A stretch of DNA of 50,850 bases from Minisyncoccia bacterium (lineage in GTDB: Bacteria > Patescibacteriota > Minisyncoccia > UBA6257 > JAAZHW01), in the NCBI GenBank assembly GCA_041550235.1, contig JBFEPE010000004.1, forward strand, positions 1-50,850. The letters run 5' to 3'. Under the pieces are notes generated by a model that ran no database searches, was not told the DNA's origin, and worked only from the letters and a program-made list of their open reading frames with translations. This document shows, piece by piece, positions 1 through 49,746 of the stretch. The stretch's first letter is position 1. Each line of letters starts with the position of its first letter. The translations under genes and the position numbers were made by a program.

Positions 1-356
1 AGAAGGGAAAACTACTCATATATATTCCGAGCAGTATCAAATATCATCAACTTGAGAATGGCAACAAATTAAATATTTATTACTATTCTTAAATTGGGGA
101 TCGTATTGACTCATGAACTGCTATTTTGAAATACATCCATGGATCCCGTTAAAGCCATATGCCGAAATTCTTGAATTTCTTATGGCTTGATTCAAAAACT
201 CTCTCCCTTAATTTCAGTAAGAAACAGGGGGAGAGTGTTTTTATTATGTTAATAATTAGTTTAATTATAAACTTCCTCGCCAAAAATTAAATCTAATTCT
301 ATAAGAAAAAATGTCCATATCACCCCCGCGGAGCGGGGGTGATTAGTTTGATTATT

Positions 357-1097
357 TTAATTATAAACTTCTCGCCATAGATTAAATCTAATCTTAATTG
401 TATCAAGCAAAGACTTAAAATAAGACTTAATACCAAACCTTGAATCTGGATCATCCTCCCACCTCACACCTATCTCCTTAATCCTATATTCCAATAATTT
501 AGCAATTGCCAAAATCTCAACATCAAATATCCCACTTCTTATTCTTGCTCTTGGAAATATATCCTCAGCTGCCTTTTCTGAAAATGCCTTAAATCCGCAT
601 TGAGTATCCCTTATTCTTGGAATAACTAATATTCTTGTAAATAAATTTCCTAATTTGCCAGATATTTGTTTCCATAATGGTTGCCTTATTGGAATTTCTG
701 AGCCCTTCGCCGTCCTTGACCCAATAACTACATTAAATCCTTTTTCAAAAAATGGCAAAAATTTTTCTATTTCATTAATTTTTGTTGAATTATCAGAATC
801 CATAAATAATCTAATTTCCCCTTTGGCCGATAACATCCCTAACTTTACTGCCTCGCCCTTTCCTCTATTTTTTTCATAGCCAATAATTTTTAATTTTTTT
901 ATTGGTCCTTCGGCTAATTTATTTACTATTTCCTCCGTCTTATCTGATGAGCCATCATTGACAACTATTATTTCATAAGAAAAATCAGCCACTGATAAGT
1001 AGCGATCTATATCAAATAATGTTGGGGCAATCCTTCCCGCTTCATTATATGCAGGAATTATTATTGACAAAAATGGTTTCTTGGGCATATAGCCCAT
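357..1097 (-). CDS. Family 2 glycosyltransferase (polyprenyl-phosphate sugar transferase-like)
   Basis: 246 aa ORF with GT-A signatures LSIIIPAYNE, VVNDGSSDKT, FMDSDNS (DxD) and TQCGFKAF. Confidence 0.85.
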   Translation of the reverse strand: MGYMPKKPFLSIIIPAYNEAGRIAPTLFDIDRYLSVADFSYEIIVVNDGSSDKTEEIVNKLAEGPIKKLKIIGYEKNRGKGEAVKLGMLSAKGEIRLFMDSDNSTKINEIEKFLPFFEKGFNVVIGSRTAKGSEIPIRQPLWKQISGKLGNLFTRILVIPRIRDTQCGFKAFSEKAAEDIFPRARIRSGIFDVEILAIAKLLEYRIKEIGVRWEDDPDSRFGIKSYFKSLLDTIKIRFNLWREVYN

Positions 1098-1120
1098 TAT
1101 ATCAAACTTTCTTTATTCTT

Positions 1121-1157
1121 AAAAATAAAAATCCAGTGAGAGAAAATCTCCCACTGG
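1121..1157 (-). terminator. Intrinsic terminator after the small membrane protein gene
   Basis: Hairpin CCAGTGAGAG-aaaat-CTCCCACTGG (1 mismatch). The plus-strand A-run at 1121-1132 gives a U-tract on the minus strand. Confidence 0.55.
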
Positions 1158-1262
1158 GGTTTTTACGAGGGCGGAGGTGACCCTCGTTAGTAGTTCTTAT
1201 CTATTTTATATTTAAACCAAATTTTATTTTTTGTCAACCCTAAAAATCAAAAAATTGTCTAT

Positions 1263-1517
1263 CTATTTTCTTGTTTTTAAAAAATAGACAATCACATCTT
1301 TTAGTGAAAAAATAGCCCAAACAAGGTTTAATGCTAAAAATGGCCAACTTTTAATGATTGATGAATAAACAACCATTAATAAGCCACCAATTAAATTGCC
1401 GAAATCATAAATAAAACTACCCTTATTCAATTTTCCAATTTGATTTAAGATAAATAATATCAGGAGAATAATCGTCCCCAATATCCCAATAATCAAATCC
1501 ATTTTAATTATATCCAT
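1263..1517 (-). CDS. Small integral membrane protein, function unknown
   Basis: Hydrophobic 84 aa with 2-3 predicted TM helices. Start moved to the internal Met (MDIIKMDLII...) because the longer ORF would overlap the Fic gene 3' end. Confidence 0.5.
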   Translation of the reverse strand: MDIIKMDLIIGILGTIILLILFILNQIGKLNKGSFIYDFGNLIGGLLMVVYSSIIKSWPFLALNLVWAIFSLKDVIVYFLKTRK

Positions 1518-1542
1518 AATTTTTCTATTTCGCAATTCAAGG

Positions 1543-2688
1543 TTATTTATCTTTAAATAATTTGATATAACTATCCATTCCAAAAAGTCTATTTCTTGAA
1601 AAGCCAGTCCTCTCAATCAAAATGCCGAGATTAACAAAATCAGACACCAATCTATTGGCGGTAGGATAATTAACATTAAGATGCTTTGAAACATCATCAA
1701 TCTTAACGACCGGATTAGAAAATAGATATTCTAAAAGAATTCTACCCCTTTGATTCTTTTTGCCTAATTTAGAAACTTTATCTTCGAAATCCTTTCTTAA
1801 TTTTATAATTTTTTCAAAAACCATTTTTGATTTTTTCGCTGTCTCTATAACCGCCTCCAAGAAAAATATAATCCATTGCTCTAAATTATTTGTAGTCCTA
1901 ACATTATTTAATGAATCATAATATGATTGCCTATTTTTCTCAAAAAAGTTAGAAATATATAAAATTGGGTATTTCAAAAATCCCCTCTCTATCAACTGGA
2001 GAACTATGAGCAATCTGCCAATTCTACCATTTCCATCTAAAAAAGGGTGGATTGTTTCAAATTGATAATGACCTATTGCTATTTTTATCAGAGTAGGAAC
2101 AAGAATATTTTCATTATGCCAAAATTTTTCCCAATCAGAAAGTAAATCTGATAAATGGCTGTGATGAGGGGGAATAAATTGAGCGGTATCAATTGAAGAA
2201 CCGCCTATCCAATTTTGACTTTTCCTTATTTCTCCAGGGCTCTTATTTTCTCCCCTTGCTTCTGAAAGTAAAATCTTGTGAGTATTTTTAATAAGCCGTA
2301 TTGAGACCGGCAATTGCCCTAAACCAGAAATAGATTCATTCATTGCTTTAATATAATTTTTTACCTCCAACCAATCATCTCTTTTTTCTGGATCAATTTC
2401 TTCTTCGGATAAGATTACCTCATCTAATTCTGTTTTTGTTCCTTCTATTTTTGAGGAACTCACCGCCTCAGAAGCAACATGCATCATTATAAAAAAATTA
2501 ATATCAGGAATTAAATCTCCATAAGAATTTAATTCGCCCAAAAGTCTTGCCGCATTTTCAAGATAGATAAATATTTTATCATTTTTAATGTCAAAGCCCT
2601 TATTTATAAGCGATGGCAAAAAATACTCATATTTTGAGAGTTTTTTGTTATCAATCGCTTCTTTTTTTCCTGCTATATATTTATCCAT
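1543..2688 (-). CDS. Fic family protein (AMPylase-type), class II with N-terminal inhibitory motif and C-terminal winged-helix domain
   Basis: Canonical Fic motif HPFLDGNGRIGR. Upstream SSKIEG fits the inhibitory helix motif (S/T)xxxE(G/N). The C-terminal segment ILLEYLFSNPVVKIDDVSKHLNVNYPTANRLVSDFVNLGIL looks like a wHTH. Confidence 0.9.
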   Translation of the reverse strand: MDKYIAGKKEAIDNKKLSKYEYFLPSLINKGFDIKNDKIFIYLENAARLLGELNSYGDLIPDINFFIMMHVASEAVSSSKIEGTKTELDEVILSEEEIDPEKRDDWLEVKNYIKAMNESISGLGQLPVSIRLIKNTHKILLSEARGENKSPGEIRKSQNWIGGSSIDTAQFIPPHHSHLSDLLSDWEKFWHNENILVPTLIKIAIGHYQFETIHPFLDGNGRIGRLLIVLQLIERGFLKYPILYISNFFEKNRQSYYDSLNNVRTTNNLEQWIIFFLEAVIETAKKSKMVFEKIIKLRKDFEDKVSKLGKKNQRGRILLEYLFSNPVVKIDDVSKHLNVNYPTANRLVSDFVNLGILIERTGFSRNRLFGMDSYIKLFKDK

Positions 2689-2694
2689 GTCTAT

Positions 2695-2703
2695 ATTATA
2701 TCA
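2695..2703 (-). promoter_or_regulatory. Extended -10 promoter (TGaTATAAT) only 6 nt upstream of the Fic ATG; implies a leaderless mRNA
   Basis: Minus strand reads atgaTATAATatagacATG, with no Shine-Dalgarno between the -10 and the ATG. Confidence 0.45.
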
Positions 2704-2820
2704 TATTATCATTTAATCGCCTAAATGATAATAAGAGAATCTATATTATCATTTAATCGCCTAAATGATAATAAGGGAATCTATATTATCATTTGAGTCC
2801 CCAAATGATAATATAAGAGG
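2701..2820. repeat. Three tandem 40-bp units, each containing the palindrome TATTATCATTT-N8-AAATGATAATA
   Basis: Palindromes at 2704-2733, 2744-2773 and 2784-2813. Units 1 and 2 are almost identical; unit 3 differs only in the 8-nt spacer. Confidence 0.9.
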
Positions 2821-2934
2821 GCAAAATTCCTATTTTTCCCCTCTTTTTCTTGCAAGATAAACAATAACATCATTACCCCGCTCTTTTTAATATTAATCTT
2901 ATTCTATCACAGCATTATCAAAAATACTATTTCT

Positions 2935-2972: not shown

Positions 2973-2980
2973 TTTTATTG

Positions 2981-7296: not shown

Positions 7297-7310
7297 ATTT
7301 AAATTTACTG

Positions 7311-7347
7311 ATATCTTCCCCCGCCCCGAAGGGGCGGGGGAAGATAT
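7311..7347. repeat. GC-core perfect palindrome (17-bp arms)
   Basis: ATATCTTCCCCCGCCCC-gaa-GGGGCGGGGGAAGATAT. Confidence 0.9.
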
Positions 7348-7796: not shown

Positions 7797-8025
7797 AATT
7801 ACACCTCCAATATCTTGATTTTATATCTTATTTTTTAAATTTGCCGGTTTTAAAAAAACCATTAAACCTGCTTACATATAATCATAATATTAAATCATTG
7901 TCAAGGATTATTATTTAGGGGGATTATAATATTATAAATAATCAAATATAAGGATATAGATTCTATCAAGTCGTGAGTTGCGAAATATTTAAGAAATTAA
8001 GAATTGTAAGAATTGAGAGATATTA

Positions 8026-8058
8026 CCACTCCTCCCCGCCAAAGGCGGGGAGGAGTGG
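8026..8058. repeat. GC-core perfect palindrome (15-bp arms)
   Basis: CCACTCCTCCCCGCC-aaa-GGCGGGGAGGAGTGG. Confidence 0.9.
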
Positions 8059-8100
8059 TGGAATAATTCATTTCGTGATTTAAAAATATAGATAAAAAAT

Positions 8101-11888: not shown

Positions 11889-11917
11889 ATCCCTCCCCGC
11901 CACAGGCGGGGAGGGAT
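11889..11917. repeat. GC-core perfect palindrome (13-bp arms)
   Basis: ATCCCTCCCCGCC-aca-GGCGGGGAGGGAT. Confidence 0.9.
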
Positions 11918-13901: not shown

Positions 13902-14000
13902 ATTTATAATTCTATCAGATATTTATTTATTTTATAGATGAATCCCCCGCCTTTTTAATATATATAATTTCTGTTAAGATAAAAGAATAAAAACAAATAT

Positions 14001-14363
14001 ATGTATCTTGAGGAAATAAAATTTGAAGAAATAAAAAATCTTGATATTGAAGATATTGATAAAATAGTAGTTGAAGAGGGAAGATGGGCGATTATAATCA
14101 TAAAAGAATGTTGTAAAAATATTGGTCTAGTTGGAATTATAAAAGATAAATTTTTTCAAATCATAATAAAAGAGGAATTTAGAGGGAGGGATTATTTAAG
14201 AAAGATAATTGATTTGATAATCACTGAGTGGAATTTAAATGAATTGTATGCAACAATAGATAGAAATAATTTAAGAAGTATGAGGGCATTTGCCAAATTG
14301 GATTATGGGCAAGTATTTGAAGGAAAAATACCAAAAAACAGTGTAAGATTAAAGATTAAATAA
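14001..14363 (+). CDS. Small GNAT-like acetyltransferase domain protein
   Basis: C-terminal NNLRSMRAFAKLDY resembles the GNAT motif B region; weak. Confidence 0.4.
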   Translation: MYLEEIKFEEIKNLDIEDIDKIVVEEGRWAIIIIKECCKNIGLVGIIKDKFFQIIIKEEFRGRDYLRKIIDLIITEWNLNELYATIDRNNLRSMRAFAKLDYGQVFEGKIPKNSVRLKIK

Positions 14364-14372
14364 TCATCACAC

Positions 14373-14401
14373 ATACCCCCGCCCCTTCGGGGCGGGGGTA
14401 T
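14373..14401. repeat. GC-core perfect palindrome (13-bp arms)
   Basis: ATACCCCCGCCCC-ttc-GGGGCGGGGGTAT. The core is the reverse complement of the cores at 7311 and 49716. Confidence 0.9.
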
Positions 14402-14513
14402 TATTAAATTATTTTTTTAATAATAAGAGGGTTTAAAGCCATTCTATAGAAATAAAATATTCTTGAAATAAAAAAGGGGCGGGCGACTGAATTGCCCGAC
14501 CACTTTTATTTTT

Positions 14514-15320
14514 TCATGCTCCCAATATCTTCGCTGCATTTCTGAAAAAAATATTTTCCCAATCTTCTTCGGACAAATCCAATTCCTTATATTTATTAAA
14601 ACAAAATGGATTTTTAATGAATGGGGCATCTGATCCCCAAATCAACCTTGAACCAACAATATCAATTGCCATTTTCAATATTTCCATATCCTCTATTGCT
14701 GATATGTCAAAAAATATTGTTGAATATTCTTTCAGGGCAGTGAGAGTTTCTTTTACTTGACCCAACCTTGGTTTGAAATTATTGTTCTCTGGAAAGTCGG
14801 CACCTAAGTGAGCTAAGATTATTAACAAATTTGGTGTGTCCTTCATGATGTCTTTTTTAATTCTATCAACCCTATTTTCTCCACCATGAAGAATTAACGG
14901 CAAGCCATATTTTTCTAAAACCTCATAAGACTTCTTAAATCCTTGATAAAAACATGGTTTTCCGTCTTTCCCCCGATATACTTTTTGTAAATAGTCATGC
15001 TCTTTAAAACCCCTTGCTCCTGCTCCTATCCAATATTTCGGTTTATCGTCTATTATCGTAAATGGTATTAGATTTGGGTTGTTTTTAGCAAGAGAGATAA
15101 CACCCTCATTTGCTTTATTAATATTAACATGTCCGGATGCGGGAATTGGAAATATCACCGAATGACTAATCCCAGCAATATTCATATTGCTTAAAACATC
15201 TCGCCCATCATGATTAACTCCACAATGCCTGACAATATAATCACTGCCATCAATTTTTGACGAGTTCCAATTTGTTTGATGAATATGGTGGTGGATATCA
15301 ATTATTTGCTTGTCTTTCAT
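14514..15320 (-). CDS. Amidohydrolase-family (TIM-barrel metal-dependent hydrolase) protein
   Basis: IDIHHHIH at the N-terminus, then ILHGG, AHLG and WGSDAPF. Confidence 0.7.
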   Translation of the reverse strand: MKDKQIIDIHHHIHQTNWNSSKIDGSDYIVRHCGVNHDGRDVLSNMNIAGISHSVIFPIPASGHVNINKANEGVISLAKNNPNLIPFTIIDDKPKYWIGAGARGFKEHDYLQKVYRGKDGKPCFYQGFKKSYEVLEKYGLPLILHGGENRVDRIKKDIMKDTPNLLIILAHLGADFPENNNFKPRLGQVKETLTALKEYSTIFFDISAIEDMEILKMAIDIVGSRLIWGSDAPFIKNPFCFNKYKELDLSEEDWENIFFRNAAKILGA

Positions 15321-16035: not shown

Positions 16036-16116
16036 GGTTTTATTTCCAAAATGATGATTTTTCTGCTATTATATTGGTGTGATTATATCATATATTTTGA
16101 TGAATAATGAGAATGC

Positions 16117-16173
16117 ATCACACCCCCCGCCGAAGGTGGCACATCCGCCTCTGGCGGGCGGGGGGGGTGTGAT
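16117..16173. repeat. Nested GC-rich element: outer palindrome ATCACACCCCCC/GGGGGGTGTGAT enclosing a 28-nt module
   Basis: The inner module at 16134-16161 is identical to 19176-19203. Confidence 0.85.
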
Positions 16174-16210
16174 GATGATATTATTTCAACACTATTTATT
16201 ATAAACAAAC

Positions 16211-17339: not shown

Positions 17340-17365
17340 ATACCCCCGCCTTCGGCGGGGGGTAT
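17340..17365. repeat. GC-core palindrome
   Basis: ATACCCCCGCC-ttc-GGCGGGGGGTAT (one extra G). Confidence 0.85.
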
Positions 17366-19142: not shown

Positions 19143-19175
19143 TCTGATATTTTATTGACTATATTTCCCCACTAG

Positions 19176-19203
19176 AGGTGGCACATCCGCCTCTGGCGGG
19201 CGG
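19176..19203. repeat. 28-nt GC-rich module AGGTGGCACATCCGCCTCTGGCGGGCGG
   Basis: Identical to 16134-16161. Lies between convergent prfA and rsmA. Confidence 0.85.
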
Positions 19204-23767: not shown

Positions 23768-23914
23768 AAATTATTTATATTTCAAAGATTAAAACCAAGA
23801 AATGGGGATCTTGTCCTCTAAATATTTATATATTTTAACAAATAGATTATAACATATTTATTTTTTCTTCGCCCCGCCTTCAAATAAAAAAGCAGGAGCC
23901 ACTACCCCCGCTTA

Positions 23915-25823: not shown

Positions 25824-25908
25824 CGCCCGCCGAAGTTTTAACGAAGGCAGGTCTTATATTATTCCCCTCTAATAGAGGGGTGGTCAGCCTTTGGCTGGAC
25901 GGGGTGTT
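25824..25908. repeat. Mosaic GC-rich element (module E plus composite hairpin element, copy 1)
   Basis: 25824-25851 is CGCCCGCCGAAGTTTTAACGAAGGCAGG. 25864-25880 is CCCCTCTaatAGAGGGG. 25885-25897 is CAGCCtttGGCTG. 25898-25908 is GACGGGGTGTT. Confidence 0.85.
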
Positions 25909-25962
25909 TTTTTGCTTACTGCACCTTATTGTGCCACATTATACCACAACTTATCATTATAT

Positions 25963-28695: not shown

Positions 28696-28797
28696 TTTTG
28701 CTTTTAGCCCTTTATTACTATTTCAGCCCCTCTACCCCCCCCCCGCCGAAGGCGGGGGGGGTAGTATTATTTGATTTTTTTGCTTTTAGCCCTTTAT
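28696..28797. repeat. GC palindrome (28732-28764) bracketed by a perfect 21-bp direct repeat
   Basis: TTTTGCTTTTAGCCCTTTATT occurs at 28696-28716 and 28777-28797. The palindrome is CTAC(C10)GCC-gaa-GGC(G8)TAG. Confidence 0.9.
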
Positions 28798-28967
28798 TTA
28801 ATTATACCAAACCCTCATAAAGATTTTATCAATTTTCCATAAATTTCTCATCAACTTTTTATTTCAAAAAAATATAATGCCTATGCATGCCTCCCTCAAA
28901 TTACAACTTTACCTTTTTATCTCTTGCATCAAATTAAATGGAAAACAAAAAAGCATCATAAAAGCAA

Positions 28968-29016
28968 ACCTCCCCCGCCTAGCCCCTGACTTGCAGGGAA
29001 CTGGGCGGGGGGGGGT
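28968..29016. repeat. Nested GC element downstream of pnp
   Basis: CCTCCCCCGCC...GGCGGGGGGGG encloses the inner hairpin CCCTGacttgCAGGG. Confidence 0.85.
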
Positions 29017-29081
29017 TGTTTTATTCTAAACGATTCTAAATCAAAGTGATAAATCAAAATTAATCTATCTAAAAACTTAAA

Positions 29082-31244: not shown

Positions 31245-31280
31245 ATTTTTTATATTTATATTTATATTTTTGTCGTGCCT

Positions 31281-31309
31281 ATCCTCCCCCGCCGTAGGCG
31301 GGGGAGGAT
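31281..31309. repeat. GC-core perfect palindrome (13-bp arms)
   Basis: ATCCTCCCCCGCC-gta-GGCGGGGGAGGAT. Confidence 0.9.
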
Positions 31310-31467
31310 TCATGATTAAATATTCTATATATCTATATTCTATTTTTTTATATCAAAAAGTCAAAGATTATTAAATTCATTTACATTATTTTTTGAAAAT
31401 AAAAAAAGACCTGCGCAATCACTTTCTGCAATTGGAGGTCTTAATCAATAGACGATCATCCGCTCTT

Positions 31468-32112
31468 TTATTGTTTTTTTACCAACCTCTTAACTTTGTC
31501 AAGGCCAAACCTCTCCCAAAAAATCTCATCGGAGCCGGGAAAGGCGACAGCGGGAGGAAAATTAACTACCCATAGTTCCTTAAAATTTTTCCCTAAAAAT
31601 GGATTAATTTCAGAAATCCAACCGAGAATATTTTTGATTAAAACACCGACTCTCATCCGCTTATTGCTTATTACCCTCTGCTCAAACCCATGGATAATAT
31701 GAGGGCAATGCCCAAGAAGCTCAGAATAATCTTCAGGGAAACATTTAAAATCTTTGAGGTCATATCTAGATAAATAATCTGCAGAATCATCCTTATCCGT
31801 CATCCTCCCTGGCGCCTCATCTTCCTTGTGCTGAATATAAAGATTTATATACCAATTTACTCGCACCTCCTCGCTAACATAATAATCGTCTTCGCATAAA
31901 GTCATTTTGACAATTAGACTTTTTTCTTTTAGACGAAAAAATAATGATGTAATTCTACCAATTGTAACCGGAATATAATAATCTTTCCCTTCTTCAGTAC
32001 TTATTTGAACCATGGCAATAAATTCAAACCCATTCCCTATCATTTTCTCCTTGACTTTTTCAAAATACTTTTTGCCCGTTAATTGTTTTAATGTTTTTTT
32101 GCTTGCCATCAT
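31468..32112 (-). CDS. Hypothetical protein
   Basis: 214 aa ORF with strong RBS TAGGAGGTattATG; no recognised motif. Confidence 0.55.
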   Translation of the reverse strand: MMASKKTLKQLTGKKYFEKVKEKMIGNGFEFIAMVQISTEEGKDYYIPVTIGRITSLFFRLKEKSLIVKMTLCEDDYYVSEEVRVNWYINLYIQHKEDEAPGRMTDKDDSADYLSRYDLKDFKCFPEDYSELLGHCPHIIHGFEQRVISNKRMRVGVLIKNILGWISEINPFLGKNFKELWVVNFPPAVAFPGSDEIFWERFGLDKVKRLVKKQ

Positions 32113-32188
32113 AATACCTCCTAAAATTATTTTTATTATATTTTCTTTTTTTAATTCAGGGTGAATTTACCATCCGAAATCCAAATAC

Positions 32189-32217
32189 ATCATATCACAC
32201 ATCTTTACAGATGTCAA
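32189..32217 (-). promoter_or_regulatory. Sigma70-type promoter with TGTGA-extended -10
   Basis: Minus strand TTGACA-N17-TATGAT. Confidence 0.5.
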
Positions 32218-32313
32218 TAGTGATGCGGGAGACACGAATATTGATTAAAATTAAAATTGTGGTATTATTGGGATATTGATTTTTGAATAAATAAATATAT
32301 AATCAAATAAACT

Positions 32314-32502
32314 ATGAAAATTGCGAAATTAAGTTCTTTTTTAAAAGAAGTGAGAGTTGAATTCAAGCATGTAAATTGGCTCACAAAAAAGGAAGTAACA
32401 AATTACACAATTATCGTGATTGTTTTCTCATTAGCATTAGCCCTATTCTTAGGATTGTTTGACTTTATATTCAACTTCGCATTAGTAGAATTTGTGTTTT
32501 AA
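32314..32502 (+). CDS. secE: Preprotein translocase subunit SecE
   Basis: 62 aa with EVRVEFKHVNWLTKKEV followed by a single TM helix. Located upstream of nusG. Confidence 0.8.
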   Translation: MKIAKLSSFLKEVRVEFKHVNWLTKKEVTNYTIIVIVFSLALALFLGLFDFIFNFALVEFVF

Positions 32503-32526
32503 TATAATAAAAACTTTCTCCGGCAA

Positions 32527-32568
32527 CCTGTCCGCCTTTGGCGGACTTTGGCGGACGGGAATGACAGG
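32527..32568. repeat. GC-rich element with one left arm and two tandem right arms
   Basis: GTCCGCC-tttg-GCGGAC-tttg-GCGGAC, plus an outer CCTGTC/GACAGG pair. Confidence 0.8.
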
Positions 32569-32609
32569 AAAAAAACAAATATCTTATTTCATAATAAAAA
32601 CAAAAAAAT

Positions 32610-33182
32610 ATGGAAGAAAAAAATAATAAAAATGATGAAAAAAAAGAATTGCCAGCAGGTAAATACTGGTATGCAATTCACACCTATTCCGGCTATGAAG
32701 ATGCCGTCGCAAGATACTTGAAACAAAGAGTAGAATCTTTGGATATGGGCGACAAAATTTTCAATGTAATAGTTCCAAAAGAAAAGAAAATCAAAATAAA
32801 GGGTGGTAAAAAACATACCATTGAGGAAAAAATATACCCCGGCTATGTTATGGTAGAAATGATATTGGCAGAAGATTCATGGTATGTCGTCCGAAACACC
32901 CCTCATGTTACCGGCTTTATTGGAGCAGACTCAACAATGCCATCACCACTTGGAGATGCTGAAGTAGATGAATTATTGGGAAAGATGAAGCCAGAAGAAC
33001 CAAAATATCTGATTGATTTGGAAGTGGGCGATATTATAAAGATAACGGATGGTCCATTCAAAGACCATGATGGTAAGGTGAGTGAAATGGATGAAGCAAA
33101 TTCAAAAGTAAAGGTCTTAGTCACGATCTTTGGAAGAGAAACCCCCGTGGAATTAGATTTCTTTCAAGTAAAGAAGATATAG
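32610..33182 (+). CDS. nusG: Transcription termination/antitermination factor NusG
   Basis: WYAIHTYSGYE (NGN domain), C-terminal KOW GDIIKITDGPFKDHDGKV. Confidence 0.9.
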   Translation: MEEKNNKNDEKKELPAGKYWYAIHTYSGYEDAVARYLKQRVESLDMGDKIFNVIVPKEKKIKIKGGKKHTIEEKIYPGYVMVEMILAEDSWYVVRNTPHVTGFIGADSTMPSPLGDAEVDELLGKMKPEEPKYLIDLEVGDIIKITDGPFKDHDGKVSEMDEANSKVKVLVTIFGRETPVELDFFQVKKI

Positions 33183-33199
33183 TAAATAAGACAATGCTA

Positions 33200-33230
33200 T
33201 CAGCCCCCCCGCCTACGGCGGGGGGGCTGA
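33200..33230. repeat. GC-core perfect palindrome (14-bp arms) between nusG and rplK
   Basis: TCAGCCCCCCCGCC-tac-GGCGGGGGGGCTGA. Confidence 0.9.
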
Positions 33231-33270
33231 AGATAAACTATTCACAATCCAAAAAAATATACTTAAAAAT

Positions 33271-33690
33271 ATGAAACCAGTAAAATCAATGATAAAACTT
33301 CAAATTCCTGCAGGAAAAGCAAATCCTGCTCCACCAGTTGGCCCAGCACTTGGTCAGCACGGAGTTAATATTGGCGATTTCGTTAATAAGTTTAATGATG
33401 CTACAAAAGATAAGATGGGCAGTATTATCCCCGTAGAAATAACCGTTTATGAGGATAGATCATTTGATTTCAAATTAAAAACTCCCCCTGCCTCAGACTT
33501 ATTGAGAAAAGCTGCTGGTATAGAGAAGGGTTCCGGTGTCCCAAATAGAAGCAAGGTTGGGAAAATAAGCAAATCTCAGTTAAGAGAAATTGCAGAGAAA
33601 AAAATAGATGATTTAAATACAGATGATATTGAGATGGCAATGAGAATTATTGGTGGCACAGCCAAAAATATGGGCATAGAGATAGAGTAG
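33271..33690 (+). CDS. rplK: Ribosomal protein L11
   Basis: [27 protein letters not shown]. Confidence 0.95.
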
Positions 33691-33722
33691 AAATTTATCC
33701 ATTTAAATATCTTTTTCAAAAA

Positions 33723-33748
33723 ATAGCCAAAGATTAATCTTTGGCTAT
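33723..33748. terminator. Bidirectional terminator between rplK and the convergent peptidase gene
   Basis: ATAGCCAAAGAT-ta-ATCTTTGGCTAT flanked by an A-run and a T-run. Confidence 0.75.
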
Positions 33749-33769
33749 TTTTTATTATTTGCCTCACAA

Positions 33770-34390
33770 TCATATCTTAATATGCTTAATATTATTATTC
33801 TTAATAATCACCACTTCCCCATCTCTTAATTCCTTAATCTCATAATCTACTCTATCTTTATAAGGTTTCAAAATTTTTTCTTCCTCTTCTACATAATGAG
33901 GAGAATAAACGACATCAATCAAATCCAATCCCATTGTGTCTTTAAGATTGGTTATTGATTTATCATCCCAAGGCTCGGCTATTTCTATATCAGGGCCAAC
34001 AAGAACCGTCCCAGCACTCACCCCGACATATACACCCATATCCCTATCAAGATATTCTCTAATTGCCTTATCAAATCCACTTTCTCGGACTTTTTCTAAA
34101 AGATAGAAGGTATTTCCGCCATCTACAAAAATAACATCAAAATCCATCAGGTCATTAAAAGAAATTGGCTTATCTAAATTCAAATCAGTTATATTATTAG
34201 CCAAAATCCCCATTTCTTCTAATTCTTTTCTGTCCGTAAGCATAAATGATTTATCTTTTTCGGGAATAGAGGCGGTAGGAATAAAAGCCACTCTTATCTC
34301 ATTCGGCTTTTTGCCAACAAAATCTAAAAATTCTTCTCTTATTTTTTGGCTTTCTTTTGGAAAAGCATTTGATGTTAAAAATAGTCTCAT
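33770..34390 (-). CDS. Peptidase S51 (dipeptidase E-like)
   Basis: FVDGGNTFYLL and the nucleophile motif GVSAGT. Confidence 0.7.
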   Translation of the reverse strand: MRLFLTSNAFPKESQKIREEFLDFVGKKPNEIRVAFIPTASIPEKDKSFMLTDRKELEEMGILANNITDLNLDKPISFNDLMDFDVIFVDGGNTFYLLEKVRESGFDKAIREYLDRDMGVYVGVSAGTVLVGPDIEIAEPWDDKSITNLKDTMGLDLIDVVYSPHYVEEEEKILKPYKDRVDYEIKELRDGEVVIIKNNNIKHIKI

Positions 34391-34428
34391 ATATTTACAT
34401 TATATCCATAATTTAATTACAATAATTC

Positions 34429-34995
34429 TCACATTGATTTAGCGACAATAGATTTGCCCTTCTTATACTCTTTTCTCGCCTCTTTGATAGATTTCTGAAG
34501 TTCATCAGAAGAAATCAAATCTTTATCTAATTCAATTTTCTTTGACATATAAACATCATGATGATTGCCATGCTTCTTAATTCTATCCACTTTAAAACCC
34601 AACTTCTTATAATATTCCGGCAAACTCTTTTCTTTGGCACAATCCAACAATAATTTTTTAAATTTTTTCTTTTTAGCTATTTTCTCAACCTCATCTATAA
34701 GCGATTTAGCAATTCCCTTATTTCTATATTTTTTAGAGACTACCAATTTATAAATATATAGATTATTGCCCTCTAATATCCTATATCTAATAACCCCAAT
34801 TATCCTATTATTATGCTCGGCAATTAAAACAAAAAATCCCTTGTTTTTAAATATTTCTTCAACATTTTTAGGTTCCCCTGATTTTGTAATCAAGCCACCT
34901 TCTTTATATGGCACCTCATAAGCCCTTTTTGTAAGAGAAATAATTTTCTTCAAATCTTCAATTTTCCCCCGCCTTATTTTATATTCCATAATCAC
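34429..34995 (-). CDS. GNAT family N-acetyltransferase
   Basis: VVSKKYRNKGIAKSLI (motif A Q/RxxGxG/A-like), YKKLGF. Confidence 0.8.
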   Translation of the reverse strand: MIMEYKIRRGKIEDLKKIISLTKRAYEVPYKEGGLITKSGEPKNVEEIFKNKGFFVLIAEHNNRIIGVIRYRILEGNNLYIYKLVVSKKYRNKGIAKSLIDEVEKIAKKKKFKKLLLDCAKEKSLPEYYKKLGFKVDRIKKHGNHHDVYMSKKIELDKDLISSDELQKSIKEARKEYKKGKSIVAKSM

Positions 34996-35097: not shown

Positions 35098-35125
35098 TTG
35101 ACAAATTCTTTATTTGTGATATAAT
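35098..35125 (+). promoter_or_regulatory. Sigma70-type promoter with perfect extended -10
   Basis: TTGACA-N16-TATAAT with TGa immediately upstream (tgtgaTATAAT). Confidence 0.6.
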
Positions 35126-35151
35126 GTAAGCAGAAATTGAAAAACGGTTAT

Positions 35152-35203
35152 CCGTGGGAAAGTGATTTTTGGGGAAAAATCGCCAACAATCACTTTCTCA
35201 TGG
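35152..35203 (+). promoter_or_regulatory. Long stem-loop in the ~127-nt 5' leader of ORF 35259
   Basis: CCGUGGGAAAGUGAUU-20 nt-AAUCACUUUCUCAUGG gives 16 bp, including two G-U pairs that form only in the plus-strand RNA. Confidence 0.5.
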
Positions 35204-35258
35204 AACTCTCACCTGCTCTTGAGTGGGGAGAAAAAGACCAGAGAAAAGGAGGTAGTCA

Positions 35259-35672
35259 ATGAAAACATCGACTACAAAAGCGGTAAGGCCGATCAGTAGA
35301 GCACTGGTGTTATACAAGTGTCAGGAATGTGGAAAAACTTTTTCCACTTGGACTCCGGTTGAGAAATTAATCCTCTCAGGTGATGGTTGTTGGATAACAG
35401 GGACGAAAGAAGGAAAGCCTTGTTATGCCTGCGGTAATTCAACTCATGAAAACTGCCGCTGGTATTCAGGGTTTTCAAGTGAGTGGGATGATTCTGTTCC
35501 AGCAGCCAGATTCTTAAAAGTTCTTGATGTAAATTATAAACAGCATGTTTATGATCCGAGTTGGGGGAATGACGGAAAAGGGGCTTACTACTTGAAATTC
35601 CAACAGCAATCTGACGGAAAGTGGAAATGGACACAAGAGGGTCCATTCAAAGGCAGACCTGCATGGATGTAA
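35259..35672 (+). CDS. Cysteine-rich hypothetical protein (putative zinc ribbon at N-terminus)
   Basis: RBS AAAGGAGGtagtcaATG; CQECGK...CYACGN...C. Visibly higher G+C than its neighbours. Confidence 0.6.
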   Translation: MKTSTTKAVRPISRALVLYKCQECGKTFSTWTPVEKLILSGDGCWITGTKEGKPCYACGNSTHENCRWYSGFSSEWDDSVPAARFLKVLDVNYKQHVYDPSWGNDGKGAYYLKFQQQSDGKWKWTQEGPFKGRPAWM

Positions 35673-42886: not shown

Positions 42887-42934
42887 ATTTTTTTGTTTAT
42901 TATATCACAACTTTAATTATTGCCTATGAAAGGA

Positions 42935-42969
42935 AACCCGCCTTCGTCAAGACTTCGGCGAGGCAAAGC
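42935..42969. repeat. Module E (reverse orientation)
   Basis: The reverse complement GCCTCGCCGAAGTCTTGACGAAGGCGGG matches 50054-81 at 26/28 positions. Confidence 0.8.
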
Positions 42970-43262: not shown

Positions 43263-43359
43263 AAATTATATATCATCGTCGGGCGATTCTATATTAAGCC
43301 GACAATATCATTTTACACTATTATTTATAAATAACAAAATTAAAAATTGCCAATACAAG

Positions 43360-43383
43360 ACAACCACCCCGCGGGGTGGTTGT
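43360..43383. repeat. GC-core perfect palindrome (12-bp arms, no spacer)
   Basis: ACAACCACCCCG/CGGGGTGGTTGT. Confidence 0.9.
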
Positions 43384-43417
43384 CAGAGTATTATCTTAAA
43401 TCACTAATAGCAAAATA

Positions 43418-46188: not shown

Positions 46189-46410
46189 TTATTTTTCATT
46201 ATGATCTTTAAAATTATCAACTTCTAATTTCTGCTCTCTGTCCATTCTCGCCCTATCTCTTCTTTGCAAAAATATTCCCAGCAATCCAAAAACAAATGAT
46301 ACAAGCAGGGTTATTAAAAATTGATAATTATTTTTTATAAATTCTATTATTGCATTATCCATATTTTTTAAATATATAGGCTTATATATGAGATAAGTTG
46401 ACTTTATCAC
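46189..46410 (-). CDS. Small membrane protein between grpE and dnaK
   Basis: One TM helix FLITLLVSFVFGLLGIFL; start uncertain. Confidence 0.35.
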   Translation of the reverse strand: MIKSTYLIYKPIYLKNMDNAIIEFIKNNYQFLITLLVSFVFGLLGIFLQRRDRARMDREQKLEVDNFKDHNEK

Positions 46411-46502
46411 CCCCCCCGCCTTCGGCGGCGGGGGATTATTCCCCTCTTATAGAGGGGTGGTCCAGCCCCTGTCCGCAGGGGCTGGGACGGGGTGTTCCTC
46501 TC
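46406..46502. repeat. GC palindrome plus composite hairpin element (copy 2)
   Basis: 46406-46437 is CCCCCCCGCC-ttc-GGCGGCGGGGG. 46441-46502 is CCCCTCTtatAGAGGGG TGG TCCAGCCCCtgtccgcaGGGGCTGG GACGGGGTGTTCC. Confidence 0.85.
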
Positions 46503-46503
46503 T

Positions 46504-46980: not shown

Positions 46981-46993
46981 GTTTTTTTACTTT

Positions 46994-47053
46994 GCCTCGC
47001 CACGTAAAAAATTGCTTCGCAATTTCAACGTGGCTGGGACGGGGTGTTCTCCT
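46994..47053. repeat. Composite hairpin element (copy 3) abutting the hrcA stop codon
   Basis: GCCACGT-22 nt (inner AATTGCttcGCAATT)-ACGTGGC then TGGGACGGGGTGTTCTCCTC. Confidence 0.85.
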
Positions 47054-47755
47054 CTAATCAATCATTAAATCAGAAAGTGCTTCTAATACTGCCAAATTTC
47101 TATCGTAGAGCATATTCTTTGGTCCCAACAATAGAAAAACCCCTCTTCTTTTTGGCAATGAATAAAATCTTGAGACTAAACTCAAATTCTCGCTTTTCGT
47201 GATAGGACTTTCCTTACCAATAAAGACAATTCTCTCAAATTCGCCGAAATCATCAAAGAAATTTTCTAATTGATTGTCTAAAAACTCAATATCATCAAAA
47301 ACTTTCTTTATCTCTTTTTTTTCTAAATCCGGCAAGCCAAAAAACAAACTACTCATTCCTGATTTTGAAATTCCTGTATCAAAATCATAATAAACACCTA
47401 ATCCCCTACAAAATCTTGAAATAATTTCACTCGGCTCAAAATTTGATACTTCATTTTTTTCCCTTATCTTTTCCGACCACCTACTTGATTCCTTATTTAA
47501 TTTCCCTTCGTTTTCAATAAATCTATTTACAAACCAGCGATATGCTTTATCAGTAGGAATCCTGCCCGCCGAAGTATGAGGTTGCTCTAAATAGTCAGAA
47601 TTTGATAAAAGAGATAGCTCGCTTCTTATTGTTGCTGGGCTTAATTCCGAAAATAATTTTTCAGCTAATTCTAATGAGCCAATAGGCCGTTCATTTTTGG
47701 CGAATTCTCTTATAATAAATTCTAATATTTTATTTTGTCTTTCTGATAATTCCAT
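47054..47755 (-). CDS. hrcA: Heat-inducible transcription repressor HrcA (short form)
   Basis: MELSERQNKILEFIIREFAKNERPIGS wHTH N-terminus; operon position; CIRCE upstream. Confidence 0.8.
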   Translation of the reverse strand: MELSERQNKILEFIIREFAKNERPIGSLELAEKLFSELSPATIRSELSLLSNSDYLEQPHTSAGRIPTDKAYRWFVNRFIENEGKLNKESSRWSEKIREKNEVSNFEPSEIISRFCRGLGVYYDFDTGISKSGMSSLFFGLPDLEKKEIKKVFDDIEFLDNQLENFFDDFGEFERIVFIGKESPITKSENLSLVSRFYSLPKRRGVFLLLGPKNMLYDRNLAVLEALSDLMID

Positions 47756-47778
47756 ATCTTCTATTCCATATTACAAAA

Positions 47779-47805
47779 TTAGCACTCCCTCGTCAAGAGT
47801 GCTAA
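47779..47805. promoter_or_regulatory. CIRCE operator (HrcA binding site)
   Basis: Perfect TTAGCACTC-N9-GAGTGCTAA, 24 nt upstream of the hrcA start. Confidence 0.92.
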
Positions 47806-47847
47806 TTTTTTTTAATAAGCAACAAAAATCACAATAAATAAATTCTC

Positions 47848-48957
47848 CTACTTCTTTTTTCTAAGAAAGGCGGGGATATCTAAACTATCATCCTTATTAT
47901 TATTACCATCATCCGAAATCGAAATAGAAGGATGCCCCCCATTATTATCACCATTTGAATCGCCCAAAAATGTTTGCTGTTTCTCAACTGACTTATATCC
48001 AGAAAATCCTGCCGCCACAATCAAAACCCTTATCTCCCCCTTCTTTATCTTAGAATCCTCAGAAATACCGGGTATAATCTTAGCATGGGGATCAACCATC
48101 TCCCCAATCATCTTGGCCGCTTCATTTATCTCAACCATTTTCAAATCACCATCCTTCCCACTAAAAGACAGCAATATCCCCCTCGCTCCTTGTGGAGATA
48201 TTTCAAACAGCGGAGAATTAACTGCTTTTTGAAGGGCATCCACTGCTCTATCTTCGCCCTCAGAAACCCCAATTCCGATGATTGCCATTCCGGCATCTTT
48301 CAGTACTGCTTTAATATCAGCAAAATCGGTGTTAATAATTCCCGGCTTATTTATCAAATCCGCTAATCCCCTCACAGACTGGGTTAATATCTCATCAATT
48401 GCCAAAAATGCGGCTTGAAGAGTTGTGTCTTTTTCAATAATATTAAAAATTCTATCATTTGGAATTATGATATATGAATCAACTTGTCCCTGAAGTTTGG
48501 CAAGTCCCTCTTCGGCAATTTCCATTCTCCTACTCCCCTCAAATAAAAATGGTTTTGTAACAACAGAAACGGTAAGAATGCCCAAATTTCTAGCAATTTC
48601 GGCAACAACTGAAATTGCCCCTGTTCCTGTGCCACCACCCATTCCCGCTGCCAAGAATATCATATCTGCACCTTTAAGGGCTTCCTCTATTTGAGCCCTT
48701 GATTCTTCAGCTGCCTGACGACCAACTTCCGGGTCCATTCCGGCACCCAATCCTTTTGATATATTTTTGCCAATATGAATTTTATTCCTCACTCCTGTCT
48801 TATGAAGGTCTTGAACATCTGTATTCAGTGCAATTAATTCAACTCCTCGCATTTGATTGCGATTCATACGAGCTAAGATATTGCCTCCCGCTCCTCCAAT
48901 TCCGACTACTTTAATTTTGGCAAAGCTTTCCAATGTTGGACTTTTTACTTTTGGCAT
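47848..48957 (-). CDS. ftsZ: Cell division protein FtsZ
   Basis: GGGTGTG tubulin signature, VVGIGGAGGN. Confidence 0.97.
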   Translation of the reverse strand: MPKVKSPTLESFAKIKVVGIGGAGGNILARMNRNQMRGVELIALNTDVQDLHKTGVRNKIHIGKNISKGLGAGMDPEVGRQAAEESRAQIEEALKGADMIFLAAGMGGGTGTGAISVVAEIARNLGILTVSVVTKPFLFEGSRRMEIAEEGLAKLQGQVDSYIIIPNDRIFNIIEKDTTLQAAFLAIDEILTQSVRGLADLINKPGIINTDFADIKAVLKDAGMAIIGIGVSEGEDRAVDALQKAVNSPLFEISPQGARGILLSFSGKDGDLKMVEINEAAKMIGEMVDPHAKIIPGISEDSKIKKGEIRVLIVAAGFSGYKSVEKQQTFLGDSNGDNNGGHPSISISDDGNNNKDDSLDIPAFLRKKK

Positions 48958-49019
48958 ATTTATATTTTCTTTAATTTAAAAATTTATGATGACTTTGACC
49001 GCAAAATAAATTGTATCAT

Positions 49020-49045
49020 TGCCCCCCCGCCTACGGCGGGGGGCA
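49020..49045. repeat. GC-core palindrome in the ftsZ leader
   Basis: TGCCCCCCCGCC-tac-GGCGGGGGGCA. Confidence 0.85.
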
Positions 49046-49091
49046 GAAAAATTATTAACACATCAAAGCAATTATCAGATAATTCTATCTT

Positions 49092-49120
49092 ATCATAATC
49101 TTTTAATCCACTATTGACAA
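49092..49120 (-). promoter_or_regulatory. Candidate ftsZ promoter
   Basis: Minus strand TTGTCA-N17-TATGAT. Confidence 0.4.
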
Positions 49121-49187
49121 TTTTGTCTGATTATGATGTTTTAATTTAACAGGTGTTATTTTTTATTTCAAAAACATGTTCATAGTC

Positions 49188-49234
49188 AAAAATAATATCC
49201 CCCCGCCCACAATGGGCGGGGGGATATTATTTTG
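49188..49234. repeat. GC-core perfect palindrome with 21-bp arms extending into AT-rich flanks
   Basis: AAAATAATATCCCCCCGCCCA-caa-TGGGCGGGGGGATATTATTTT. Confidence 0.9.
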
Positions 49235-49260
49235 TGTAAATTTAAAAAAATGTATCAAAT

Positions 49261-49668
49261 CTATTTCTCATCTGTCGTCTCATCAGAAGGAGCCATCTCA
49301 TTATTTTCTAAATCATCGCCCTCTTTTTTCTTGTCTTTCTCATCAACATCAGCATCAACGCTAACATCAACACTCAAATTCTTATTGGGCAAATCCAACT
49401 CTTCGCCTGTCTCCACTTTCTTGATAATGCTTTCCAACTTCCATTTCTTATCCTTTGATATTGGGCGGGATTGTGAAATCTCAACGAAGTCGCCAATTCT
49501 TGCCTCATTTTTCTCATCATGAGCTTTAAATTTTTTACTAATCCTCACTCTTTTCTTATATCGTGGATGTTCTGCTAATCTATCAACCTTAATAACGATG
49601 GTCTTATCCATCTTGTCGGAGACTACTACTCCCTTTAATTTCTTAATTGTCTTTCGCTTATTTTCCAT
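49261..49668 (-). CDS. rpsQ: Ribosomal protein S17 with acidic C-terminal extension
   Basis: [20 protein letters not shown]...[19 protein letters not shown]. Start placed at MENKRK; an alternative ATG lies at 49686. Confidence 0.85.
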
Positions 49669-49715
49669 ATTGATAGTATATAACATTATGTTTAATTAAT
49701 ATATAATTTTTCTCT

Positions 49716-49746
49716 CATACCCCCGCCCCGAAGGGGCGGGGGTATG
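49716..49746. repeat. GC-core perfect palindrome (14-bp arms) between rpmC and rpsQ
   Basis: CATACCCCCGCCCC-gaa-GGGGCGGGGGTATG. Confidence 0.9.

Follow-up and report, generated by a model that had tools for sequence, protein, structure and literature searches.

Two kinds of short GC-rich palindromic repeats are the closest described counterparts of the elements reported here. Repetitive extragenic palindromic (REP) elements of Proteobacteria and others and their REPIN arrangements are 25-45 bp long, GC-rich, intergenic and palindromic, number from tens to thousands per genome, fall into subfamilies within each genome, and vary in copy number and location between strains. The REP superfamilies have an unpaired GTAG or CGTC tetranucleotide at one end (PMC3733652), and mRNAs often include the transcribed elements, whose effect can be stabilisation or termination (PMC3733652, PMC2817692). 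In mitochondria, the GC clusters of yeast and the repetitive hairpin-forming elements of sponges and fungi are GC-rich palindromes scattered through the spacers of AT-rich compact genomes; they are sporadic among close relatives, turn over rapidly, merge into composites, show loop-biased substitutions, and have no known dedicated transposase (PMC4478555, PMC2800124). The yeast GC clusters are also recombination hot spots (PMC4478555). Traits of both systems recur in a family of GC-rich palindromes in the 50,850-nt stretch analysed here, which is the whole contig JBFEPE010000004.1 of an uncultured marine/estuarine Minisyncoccia bacterium (33.3% GC) and is referred to as the window. Genomes of the Patescibacteria, to which this organism belongs, measure about 1 Mb and are thought to be stripped of dispensable DNA.

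We consider it rather probable that the palindromes are lineage-specific, dispersed, REP-like miniature repeats of an AT-rich patescibacterial genome. The basis of this reading is the occurrence of near-identical copies at unrelated loci, of strain-specific loci, of presence, absence or replacement at orthologous spacers, and of composites, together with the perfect symmetry of the DNA. The copies are best read as selfish or recombination-spread elements, and our confidence in any specific mechanism of spread or RNA function is lower.

Structure and enrichment of the palindromes

All 16 palindromes listed in an earlier note on this DNA were recovered at the coordinates given there, and all 16 lie within the non-coding 16.5% of the window (coding share about 83%). 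The one at 31281 overlaps only a spurious N-terminal extension of an open reading frame (ORF): pnp starts at 31244, in agreement with the 720-aa genes called in two other strains. The density is one palindrome per 3.2 kb of window, and at least one is found in 13 of the 45 spacers of 20 nt or more (about 29%). When a perfect hairpin is defined by a stem of at least 9 bp, at least 7 GC pairs, and a loop of 3-5 nt, the window has 13, whereas 100 dinucleotide shuffles of it gave 0.01 on average and never more than 1.

At twelve sites the stem is perfect over 11-21 bp and the loop is 3 nt long (4 nt at 43359). The palindromes at 17340 and 49020 have 8-9 perfect bp plus a one-base mismatch in C/G-run length, and the 8 perfect bp at 46406 are broken by a C-C mismatch. 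At 16117 and 28968, the family arms enclose a 24-25-nt insert instead of the 3-nt loop. The core and 3-nt loop that had been ascribed to every site, CCCC(C)GCC facing GGCG(G)GGG, are found at most of them; apart from the two inserts, the core varies at 319 (CCCCCGC-gga-GCGGGGG), 43359 (CCACCCCGCGGGGTGG), and 49189 (CCCCCCGCCCA-caa-). The polarity is fixed, with the C-rich arm 5' and the G-rich arm 3' at 16 of 16 sites, and no hairpin of opposite polarity occurs in the window. The perfect stems have no G-T pair, whereas the ordinary terminators of the window do use G-U pairs. The length of the C and G runs is not constant, either from strain to strain or from arm to arm, and the predicted stability of the RNA hairpins ranges from -18 to -38 kcal/mol. 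The members are as follows.

319-343: palindrome ATCACCCCCGC-gga-GCGGGGGTGAT, 11 bp, -20.9 kcal/mol, 13 nt past the stop of a glycosyltransferase gene (357-1097, minus strand)
7311-7347: palindrome, 17 bp, core CCCCCGCCCC-gaa-GGGGCGGGGG, 14 nt ahead of the start of a TrwB/VirD4-like gene (minus strand)
8025-8059: palindrome, 16 bp, CTCCTCCCCGCC-aaa-, in a divergent spacer, 41 nt ahead of the start of a cupin gene (plus strand)
11889-11917: palindrome, 13 bp, 32 nt ahead of the frr start (minus strand)
14373-14401: palindrome ATACCCCCGCCCC-ttc-GGGGCGGGGGTAT, 13 bp, in a convergent spacer (14363-14514), 9 nt past a stop codon
16117-16173: composite with arms ATCACACCCCCCGCC and GGCGGGGGGGGTGTGAT around the D7 insert GGTGGCACATCCGCCTCTGGCGG, 37 nt ahead of the dnaX start (plus strand)
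17340-17365: palindrome ATACCCCCGCC-ttc-GGCGGGGGGTAT with one extra G, 37 nt past the dnaX stop and 31 nt ahead of the udg start
28732-28764: palindrome CTAC(10)GCC-gaa-GGCG(8)TAG, 90 nt ahead of the start of a 78-aa gene (minus strand)
28968-29016: composite with arms CCCCCGCC and GGCGGGGG around an inner CCCTG...CAGGG hairpin, 65 nt past the pnp stop, with a sense-strand U-rich tail
31281-31309: palindrome ATCCTCCCCCGCC-gta-, 13 bp, in the pnp 5' leader, 36 nt ahead of the start at 31244
33200-33230: palindrome TCAGCCCCCCCGCC-tac-, 14 bp, in the nusG/rplK spacer
43359-43384: palindrome GACAACCACCC-cgcg-GGGTGGTTGTC, 33 nt past the rplS stop, with a U-rich tail; the most divergent member
46406-46437: imperfect member with a C-C mismatch, between grpE and a 57-aa ORF / dnaK, adjoining a hairpin of a second repeat family (46441-46500)
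49020-49045: palindrome TGCCCCCCCGCC-tac-, in the ftsZ 5' leader, 62 nt ahead of the start
49189-49233: 21-bp palindrome with A/T-rich outer arms (AAAATAATAT...ATATTATTTT), 27 nt past the rpsQ stop, in the form of a bidirectional intrinsic terminator
49716-49746: palindrome CATACCCCCGCCCC-gaa-GGGGCGGGGGTATG, between rpmC (49767-49946, minus strand) and rpsQ

The outer arms had been described as different at every locus, which does not hold: they define shared subfamilies, namely ATA- (14373, 17340, 49716), ATCA(CA)- (319, 16117, 46406), and ATCC(C)T- (11889, 31281, and 8025-like), and some copies are nearly identical. The palindromes at 14373 and 49716 are 97% identical over 34 nt, and those at 8025 and 11889 are 89% identical over 28 nt and have a common 3' flank motif, TTTCGTAATTCAAA, TTTCGT(A/G)ATT(C/T)AAA. 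We considered a larger element defined by flank homology and rejected it, as the best flank similarity is the genome-wide start context AAAAAT-ATG, which is the reason for most of the similarity between flanks; what is left after its removal is ATAAT upstream and TTTCGTAATTCAAA downstream (8025, 11889). A UUCG tetraloop in place of the ttc loops was also discarded, because this register moves the stem by one base and the stem is then broken at the G interrupting the C run. Rfam 15 returned no match at the gathering score for the window and four related loci, only hits with chance-level E-values. A tRNA/tmRNA search gave nothing, and 16117-16173, upstream of dnaX, has no match to signal recognition particle RNA. 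Window DNA was detected in marine, estuary, and sediment metagenomes, and therefore high temperature is no explanation for the GC-rich stems; the organism was found in none of the RNA runs.

Beyond these sites, the 7-mer CCCCGCC/GGCGGGG is found in 3 copies within 42 kb of coding DNA and in two intergenic lone half-sites (13944-13951 and 23870-23878), which the earlier note had also reported. This distribution bears on its suggestion that the palindromes are uptake signals paired as inverted repeats. Neisseria DNA uptake sequences (DUS) and Pasteurellaceae uptake signal sequences (USS), as well as Correia-type miniature inverted-repeat transposable elements (MITEs), share with the family an over-represented short motif, sometimes in inverted pairs that form terminator-like hairpins in spacers. 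The strong over-representation of the core would suit such a function, and so would the PilM/PilN-like and TrwB-like proteins encoded in the window and the dependence of Patescibacteria on imported nucleotides. Known uptake sequences, however, are common as single copies and within genes. Here, about 30 paired arms stand against about 5 lone sites, the 7-mer is nearly missing from the coding 83% of the window, pairing is always with a 3-nt loop, and complementarity reaches beyond the core. We regard an uptake function as very improbable.

Turnover between strains

We compared the window with same-lineage contigs (L081, L082, L087, L208, and L209, of which L087 is from a different NCBI metagenome-assembled genome, MAG) and with metagenome contigs of further strains or runs (X2, X3, X6, and X7). 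Presence/absence was found at four orthologous spacers, those of nusG-rplK, rpmC-rpsQ, the ftsZ leader, and 7311, and the strains with the palindrome-less alleles are 90-98% identical in flanking DNA. The family is thus polymorphic in position as well as enriched, the reverse of the two outcomes that the earlier note had named as damaging to its proposal. The nusG-rplK spacer measures 88 nt in the window and 8 nt in L081 (93-97% identical), where an 80-nt segment with 33200-33230 is missing; in a third allele, X6 and X7 have the hairpin AATATTC(T)CCGCC-TAT-GGCGGAGAATATT directly before rplK. The segment with 49716-49746 is missing in L087 (86 nt; flanks 90-98% identical) and in an X7 contig (94 nt, bordered by a 4-nt AATA repeat), and therefore rpsQ lies directly behind rpmC in both, the arrangement of most bacteria. 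In the ftsZ leader, an X6 contig is without 117 nt including 49020-49045, L087 has a perfect hairpin, and L208 and L209 have a composite element at exactly the 49020 place. The 65 nt holding the palindrome at 7311-7347 are swapped for 24 unrelated bases in X7. Two of the four polymorphic spacers carry an alternative hairpin in other strains. The composite at 28968 is kept in L081, where it is perfectly complementary, and missing in L082, where a different gene follows pnp.

The same sequences also occur elsewhere. The 8026-8058 palindrome lies with unrelated flanks inside a 6.7-kb X2 contig and an X7 contig, and the 7314-7345 palindrome does so in X3 and X6 contigs. The 31-mer of 49716 reaches about 4x the depth of adjacent DNA in X2 and has other flanks there. 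The composite 16124-16164 (depth measured over 16097-16190) reaches 8-15x the adjacent depth in four other metagenomes, with many different flanks, and is therefore multi-copy. Within the stems, two compensated changes were seen: 28735 C>T with 28761 G>A (X2, X7), along with changes in C-run length, and 8030 T>C with 8054 A>G (X3). Three changes between strains are uncompensated, all in outermost pairs. The loop of 28732-28764 is TTC in X2 instead of GAA, i.e., the reverse complement, which reads as the signature of a hairpin flip.

The phylogenetic range is narrow. The family is in all same-species contigs (L081, L082, L087, L208), and L089 (about 65% identity in polynucleotide phosphorylase, PNPase) has two clear members; it is absent from L083 and L088 (63-64% PNPase identity), which are equally AT-rich, and from 80 related loci of other candidate phyla radiation (CPR) and other bacteria. 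Two specific patterns had 0 hits in the Joint Genome Institute (JGI) metagenomes, a collection that does not contain this lineage. Among GTDB species representatives, the window PNPase has at most 53% identity to anything, with MAGs of Patescibacteria/CPR as top matches; in a larger protein collection, it has two 98%-identical neighbours and the next only at 65%. The closest named relatives by PNPase are Paceibacterota, Azambacteria, and Moranbacteria (49-57% identity).

Metagenome contigs from Logan often end at palindromes, and the two arms have C/G runs of unequal length at some sites, as might be expected of an assembly or sequencing artefact. Two NCBI MAGs and Logan contigs spanning several studies and years, all assembled independently, nevertheless have the same palindromes, so an artefact is hardly credible. 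The palindromes break short-read assemblies of the lineage and make good strain markers.

Gene order near pnp and ftsZ differs strongly among strains that are 92-98% identical in shared genes, as seen when 28849-34971 is compared with L081 and L082, 47064-49858 with L087, and 47828-49120 with L208. L087 has an extra 166-aa gene between rpsQ and ftsZ that replaces the 49189 segment, and other strains differ in the upstream or downstream genes. Synteny breakpoints at 31369/31405, 29083, 49175-49259, and 49120 are at most about 100 nt from a palindrome. Such breakpoints could indicate that the palindromes are protein or recombination sites at the DNA level, for example cruciforms or hairpins recognised by a nucleoid protein, topoisomerase, or site-specific recombinase, and would then serve as hot spots of gene-cassette shuffling. 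The perfect DNA symmetry, conserved core, and fixed polarity are consistent with this idea, as is the analogy with yeast mitochondrial GC clusters and with REP elements and bacterial interspersed mosaic elements (BIMEs), which bind IHF and gyrase. Breakpoints are confined to spacers anyway, however, and since 29% of these hold a palindrome, finding 5 of 9 breakpoints in palindrome-bearing spacers amounts to no more than a weak excess. The window proteins encoded nearby include no candidate binding protein or recombinase, and the variable stem length and outer arms suit a structure better than a sequence-specific duplex site. We find this explanation improbable.

Relation to terminators, promoters, and transcripts

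Like intrinsic terminators, the palindromes have a GC-rich stem whose 5' arm is C-rich and whose 3' arm is G-rich. They differ in that most are without a U tract, that separate terminators occur in five of their spacers, and that some are in leader or divergent positions. The view that they are not ordinary terminators is thus upheld by the co-occurring T-tract terminators, the divergent spacer, and the promoter-like boxes upstream. The separate T-tract class is present at 1157, 7440, 8496, 12080, 21702, 23913, 25991, 33718, 35693, and 50458. A palindrome and a separate T-tract or bidirectional terminator share the spacers after the GT2 gene, hyp109-TrwB, hyp159-frr, GNAT/amidohydrolase, and rpsQ-ftsZ; two such terminators are given here.

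194-242: separate bidirectional terminator hairpin, following the palindrome 319-343
14464-14516: separate terminator, in the same convergent spacer as the palindrome 14373

In two spacers (7467 to 7296 and 12116 to 11856), the order is stop codon, T-tract terminator, promoter-like box, palindrome, and start codon. Specifically, the 7311 palindrome is downstream of the T-tract terminator 7440-7419 and the promoter-like 7409-7382, and the 11889 palindrome is downstream of the T-tract terminator 12080-12060 and the promoter-like 11953-11925.

As had been noticed before, the palindromes mostly have no T-tract, a U-rich tail on the sense strand being seen at only about 4 of the 16. U-rich sequence trails those at 28968, 43359, 49189, and partly 14373, each directly behind a gene, and these are probably terminators; the 43359 palindrome looks like one. 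The leader and intra-operon copies have purine-rich sense-strand tails (AGGCAC, GGACCC, AGAGAA, and others). A consensus terminator scan flags some palindromes on the antisense strand only. We rejected these as antisense terminators: the weak T-rich tail is the ATAAT box of the sense strand, and a terminator so placed has no evident use.

Nine palindromes lie at most 70 nt past a stop codon, five behind promoter-like boxes in leaders, and one in a divergent spacer (8025). The promoter-like box is 8-46 nt upstream of the five leader copies. At pnp, TTGACT-16-TAGAAT (31364-31337) is 28 nt upstream of the palindrome, and both are kept in three strains with differing upstream genes. At ftsZ, a promoter-like TTGTCA-17-TATGAT (49120-49092) is 46 nt upstream of the palindrome and has at most one base difference among four sequences otherwise 92-98% identical. 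The distance to the next start codon is 31-47 nt in 8 of 12 cases. An ATAAT box in the orientation of the neighbouring gene lies within 14 nt upstream at 8 of 16 sites versus a background of 0.08, the motif having been picked after the flanks were viewed. Among the 12 sites that have a 3-nt loop and whose sense strand can be assigned, 10 have a loop rich in pyrimidines on that strand.

Stem-loops near the 5' end stabilise the ompA mRNA of E. coli and several mRNAs of B. subtilis, and 3' stem-loops block exonucleases of the PNPase type. The placement data fit mRNA hairpins at 5' ends, distant enough from the start codon to spare initiation; they would equally fit purifying selection against insertions that terminate transcription or occlude initiation.

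That the palindromes act as mRNA-stabilising or processing hairpins, as the earlier note suggested, is plausible. They could be pictured as primarily functional RNA hairpins that evolved in place and mark transcript ends, where they would guard the 5' side or, at 3' and intercistronic positions, stabilise or terminate, as a defence against RNases of the PNPase type and those that depend on the 5' end, with the core kept by selection for stability and by gene conversion rather than by transposition. The strictly intergenic location, the spacing ahead of start codons, the pyrimidine-rich loops, the position behind promoter-like boxes, kept between strains, in the pnp and ftsZ leaders, and the U-poor tails of leader copies as opposed to the U-rich tails of several 3' copies all speak for it. 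So do the two compensated stem changes, the alternative hairpins at the same spacer in other strains, and the use of the same 17-nt core as a common terminator stem in GC-rich phage genomes. As to the last point, this core was found at more than 118 loci in viral contigs (median GC 62%), and those inspected are ordinary terminator stems directly before T runs; three hits in AT-rich viral contigs are not part of a repeat family there. The 17-nt core alone is not special.

Five observations are difficult to reconcile with hairpins evolved in place. Hairpin-less alleles exist at four orthologous sites; the relatives at 63-64% identity have none, and therefore no gene needs a palindrome; a flipped loop is tolerated in one strain; G-U pairs are entirely missing, unlike in the real terminators of the window; and identical copies of 31-34 nt at unrelated loci, along with strain-dependent loci, point to copying. 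We regard an origin as RNA hairpins in place as possible but doubtful.

Comparison with known repeat families and route of spread

The proposed likeness to REP elements and BIMEs holds for behaviour, i.e., for a dispersed, multi-copy, and strain-specific family with presence/absence, and fails for membership on the tag, the dimers, and the G-T pairs. A GTAG or CGTC tag was not found in the flanks of any of the 16 sites on either strand, the sole GTAG (28761-28764) lying in a paired stem. The perfect stems of 11-21 bp without G-T pairs differ from REP stems, which mostly have 6-9. The palindromes are singletons, the closest pairs being 143-236 nt apart (28732/28968 and 49020/49189), and no head-to-head or tail-to-tail dimers of the REPIN or BIME type occur. 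The REP-associated tyrosine transposase (RAYT; IS200/IS605-type Y1 transposase) was searched for in about 95 kb of lineage DNA, comprising the window and about 46 kb of same-lineage contigs; Y1_Tnp is found neither among 20 Pfam-scanned window proteins nor in the gene tables of the other contigs. The phylum of the host, whose genome has about 33% GC, is not listed for GTAG/CGTC repeats in PMC3733652. The family hence appears to be REP-like in behaviour without being a REP member. MITEs differ in other respects, since filled/empty comparisons reveal neither terminal inverted repeats around a longer body nor a TA-type duplication.

The match in behaviour is even closer to the mitochondrial GC clusters than to the REP elements. 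The clusters are organellar and unrelated in sequence, while the palindromes are in a bacterial chromosome with sigma-70-type promoters and terminators; the yeast clusters have an AG target duplication, and the palindromes are without a consistent one. In a full-text literature search, no paper tied Patescibacteria/CPR to REP or RAYT, which is not proof of novelty, and such elements in Patescibacteria do not seem to have been described.

If the palindromes are dispersed repeats, they would spread by a DNA-level process, either a transposase acting on hairpin DNA, or ectopic recombination or gene conversion plus template switching between copies, and would persist only where harmless, i.e., in spacers. 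Each copy would fold in the mRNA as a very stable stem-loop, because the spacers of a compact genome are presumably transcribed. Copies behind genes with U-rich sequence (28968, 43359, 49189, and partly 14373) would then probably terminate transcripts or protect their 3' ends. Leader and operon copies without U tails would be tolerated, and may have been co-opted to stabilise the mRNA as hairpins near its 5' end or between cistrons, about 30-47 nt ahead of the start codon. Perfect symmetry, loop flips, and compensated changes are the expected outcome of template switching or of palindrome-templated repair. Compensated changes would follow from selection on an RNA stem too, but such selection would tolerate G-U pairs, and we therefore infer that the symmetry reflects a DNA-level process or young copies.

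Several points weigh against dispersed repeats. No transposase was detected among the 20 unassigned window proteins scanned with Pfam (the remaining window genes have evident housekeeping identities), nor in the gene tables of the same-lineage contigs. Clear target-site duplications were not seen in the compared spacers, only imperfect similarities of 8/11 and 10/14 and the one AATA repeat. The missing segments measure 65-117 nt and include unique AT-rich flanks, so they are not clean palindrome excisions and could reflect insertion or deletion. Two spacers have a different hairpin at the same place in other strains, which fits selection for a hairpin at that place as well as it fits a hot spot. 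The outer arms are partly locus-specific, unlike what a simple copy-and-paste element would predict. Finally, transcription of the elements and their effect on RNA are inferred.

A more far-reaching version of the dispersed-repeat reading is conceivable, though rather unlikely. The family would be a new, untagged, RAYT-less hairpin element of bacteria, propagated or homogenised by hairpin-templated DNA synthesis, ectopic conversion, or a nuclease. It would also serve as transcript punctuation, about 30-47 nt before starts and after stops in a streamlined genome largely without Shine-Dalgarno sequences, and as a hot spot of gene-cassette shuffling.

Companion repeats and other features of the window

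A second GC-rich intergenic repeat family consists of the hairpin CCCCTCT-ATW-AGAGGGG adjoining TGGTC(C)AGCC..GGCTGGGACGGGGTGTT. It is found at 25856-25917, 46441-46500, 46989-47048, and 50612-50690, at 2481 in L081, and at 8327 in L208, and includes a 56-nt inverted pair (46993-47048 and 50612-50667) that is 91% complementary. The D7 motif, GGTGGCACATCCGCCT(C/T)(T/A)GGCGGGCG, occurs within palindrome arms or alone, at 16125-16161, 19167-19203, and 50560-50596, at 1837 in L082, and at 9913 in L208. With its 8-15x depth in four metagenomes, D7 is a separate high-copy repeat. One copy stands by itself.

19167-19203: second copy of the D7 insert, 89% identical to 16125-16161, in the convergent spacer of a prfB-like gene and rsmA

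This copy is a related member of the GC-rich repeat population. The repeat GCCTCGCCGAAGTTTTAACGAAGGCGGGC occurs at 50054-50088, 42930-42964, and about 25826, and the copy at 50054 immediately precedes a perfect consensus promoter, TTGACA-16-TATAAT (50087-50114). A conserved two-hairpin element, ACCCCCGC-GAAG-GCGGGGGT ... ATGCCCGC-CTTC-GCGGGCAT-GACAAAG ... TTTCGTAATTCAAA, is located at 905-1000 and 1700-1940 in L082, at 8264 in L208, and at 12191-12254 in L089, the relative at 65% identity; it may be a small structured RNA or another repeat family. ORF 50451-50750 sits in a mosaic of companion repeats and is probably not a real gene. ORF 50126-50443 lies behind the consensus promoter and a GGAGG site, and its product is uncharacteristic. 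Between secE (32314-32502) and nusG, there is a GC-rich tandem hairpin, GTCCGCC-TTT-GGCGGAC-TTT-GGCGGAC (32519-32569).

The housekeeping genes of the window comprise frr, alr, dnaX, udg, rpmE, murA, ruvX, radC, pnp (29082-31244), secE-nusG-rplK, rplS, hrcA-grpE-dnaK, ftsZ, and rpmC-rpsQ. The other genes encode a TrwB/VirD4-like ATPase, PilM/N, a methylase with a DUF6996/6997 partner, and hypothetical proteins. A Shine-Dalgarno sequence is missing from most window genes, and AAAAAT-ATG is the common start context. In several genes (e.g., 2688, 15454, 21556, 34390, and 42886), a TGnTATAAT box is located just 6-10 nt ahead of the ATG, which suggests leaderless mRNAs or mRNAs with a very short leader.

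Three further sites have a regulatory appearance. Upstream of hrcA is a CIRCE element, TTAGCACTC-N9-GAGTGCTAA (47779-47805), in keeping with control of the hrcA-grpE-dnaK operon by HrcA. Three tandem 40-nt units (2703-2822), each an inverted repeat, TATTATCATTTA-N6-TAAATGATAATA, lie immediately upstream of a Fic-domain gene (1543-2688, minus strand); the arrangement resembles an operator array to which a dimeric repressor would bind. The leader of a gene for a small Zn-ribbon protein (35259-35672) has a consensus promoter (35098-35125) and, downstream of it, a hairpin of -33 kcal/mol (35151-35204). This leader (35098-35258) matches no Rfam family and could be cis-regulatory.

Biological implications

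The description that suits the palindromes best is a new repeat family of a marine Patescibacteria lineage, untagged and REP-like or GC-cluster-like, in which a minority of copies are putative terminators. Although the genome is supposedly streamlined, a fast-evolving GC-rich palindrome is found in about 29% of the spacers. If the palindromes are mobile, they would constitute a REP-like system outside the GTAG/CGTC-RAYT scheme and a bacterial counterpart of the mitochondrial GC clusters, for which, to our knowledge, the mechanism of spread is still unknown. If the palindromes are used by the cell, they would be a means of protecting or delimiting mRNA in an organism with few Shine-Dalgarno sites and short leaders.

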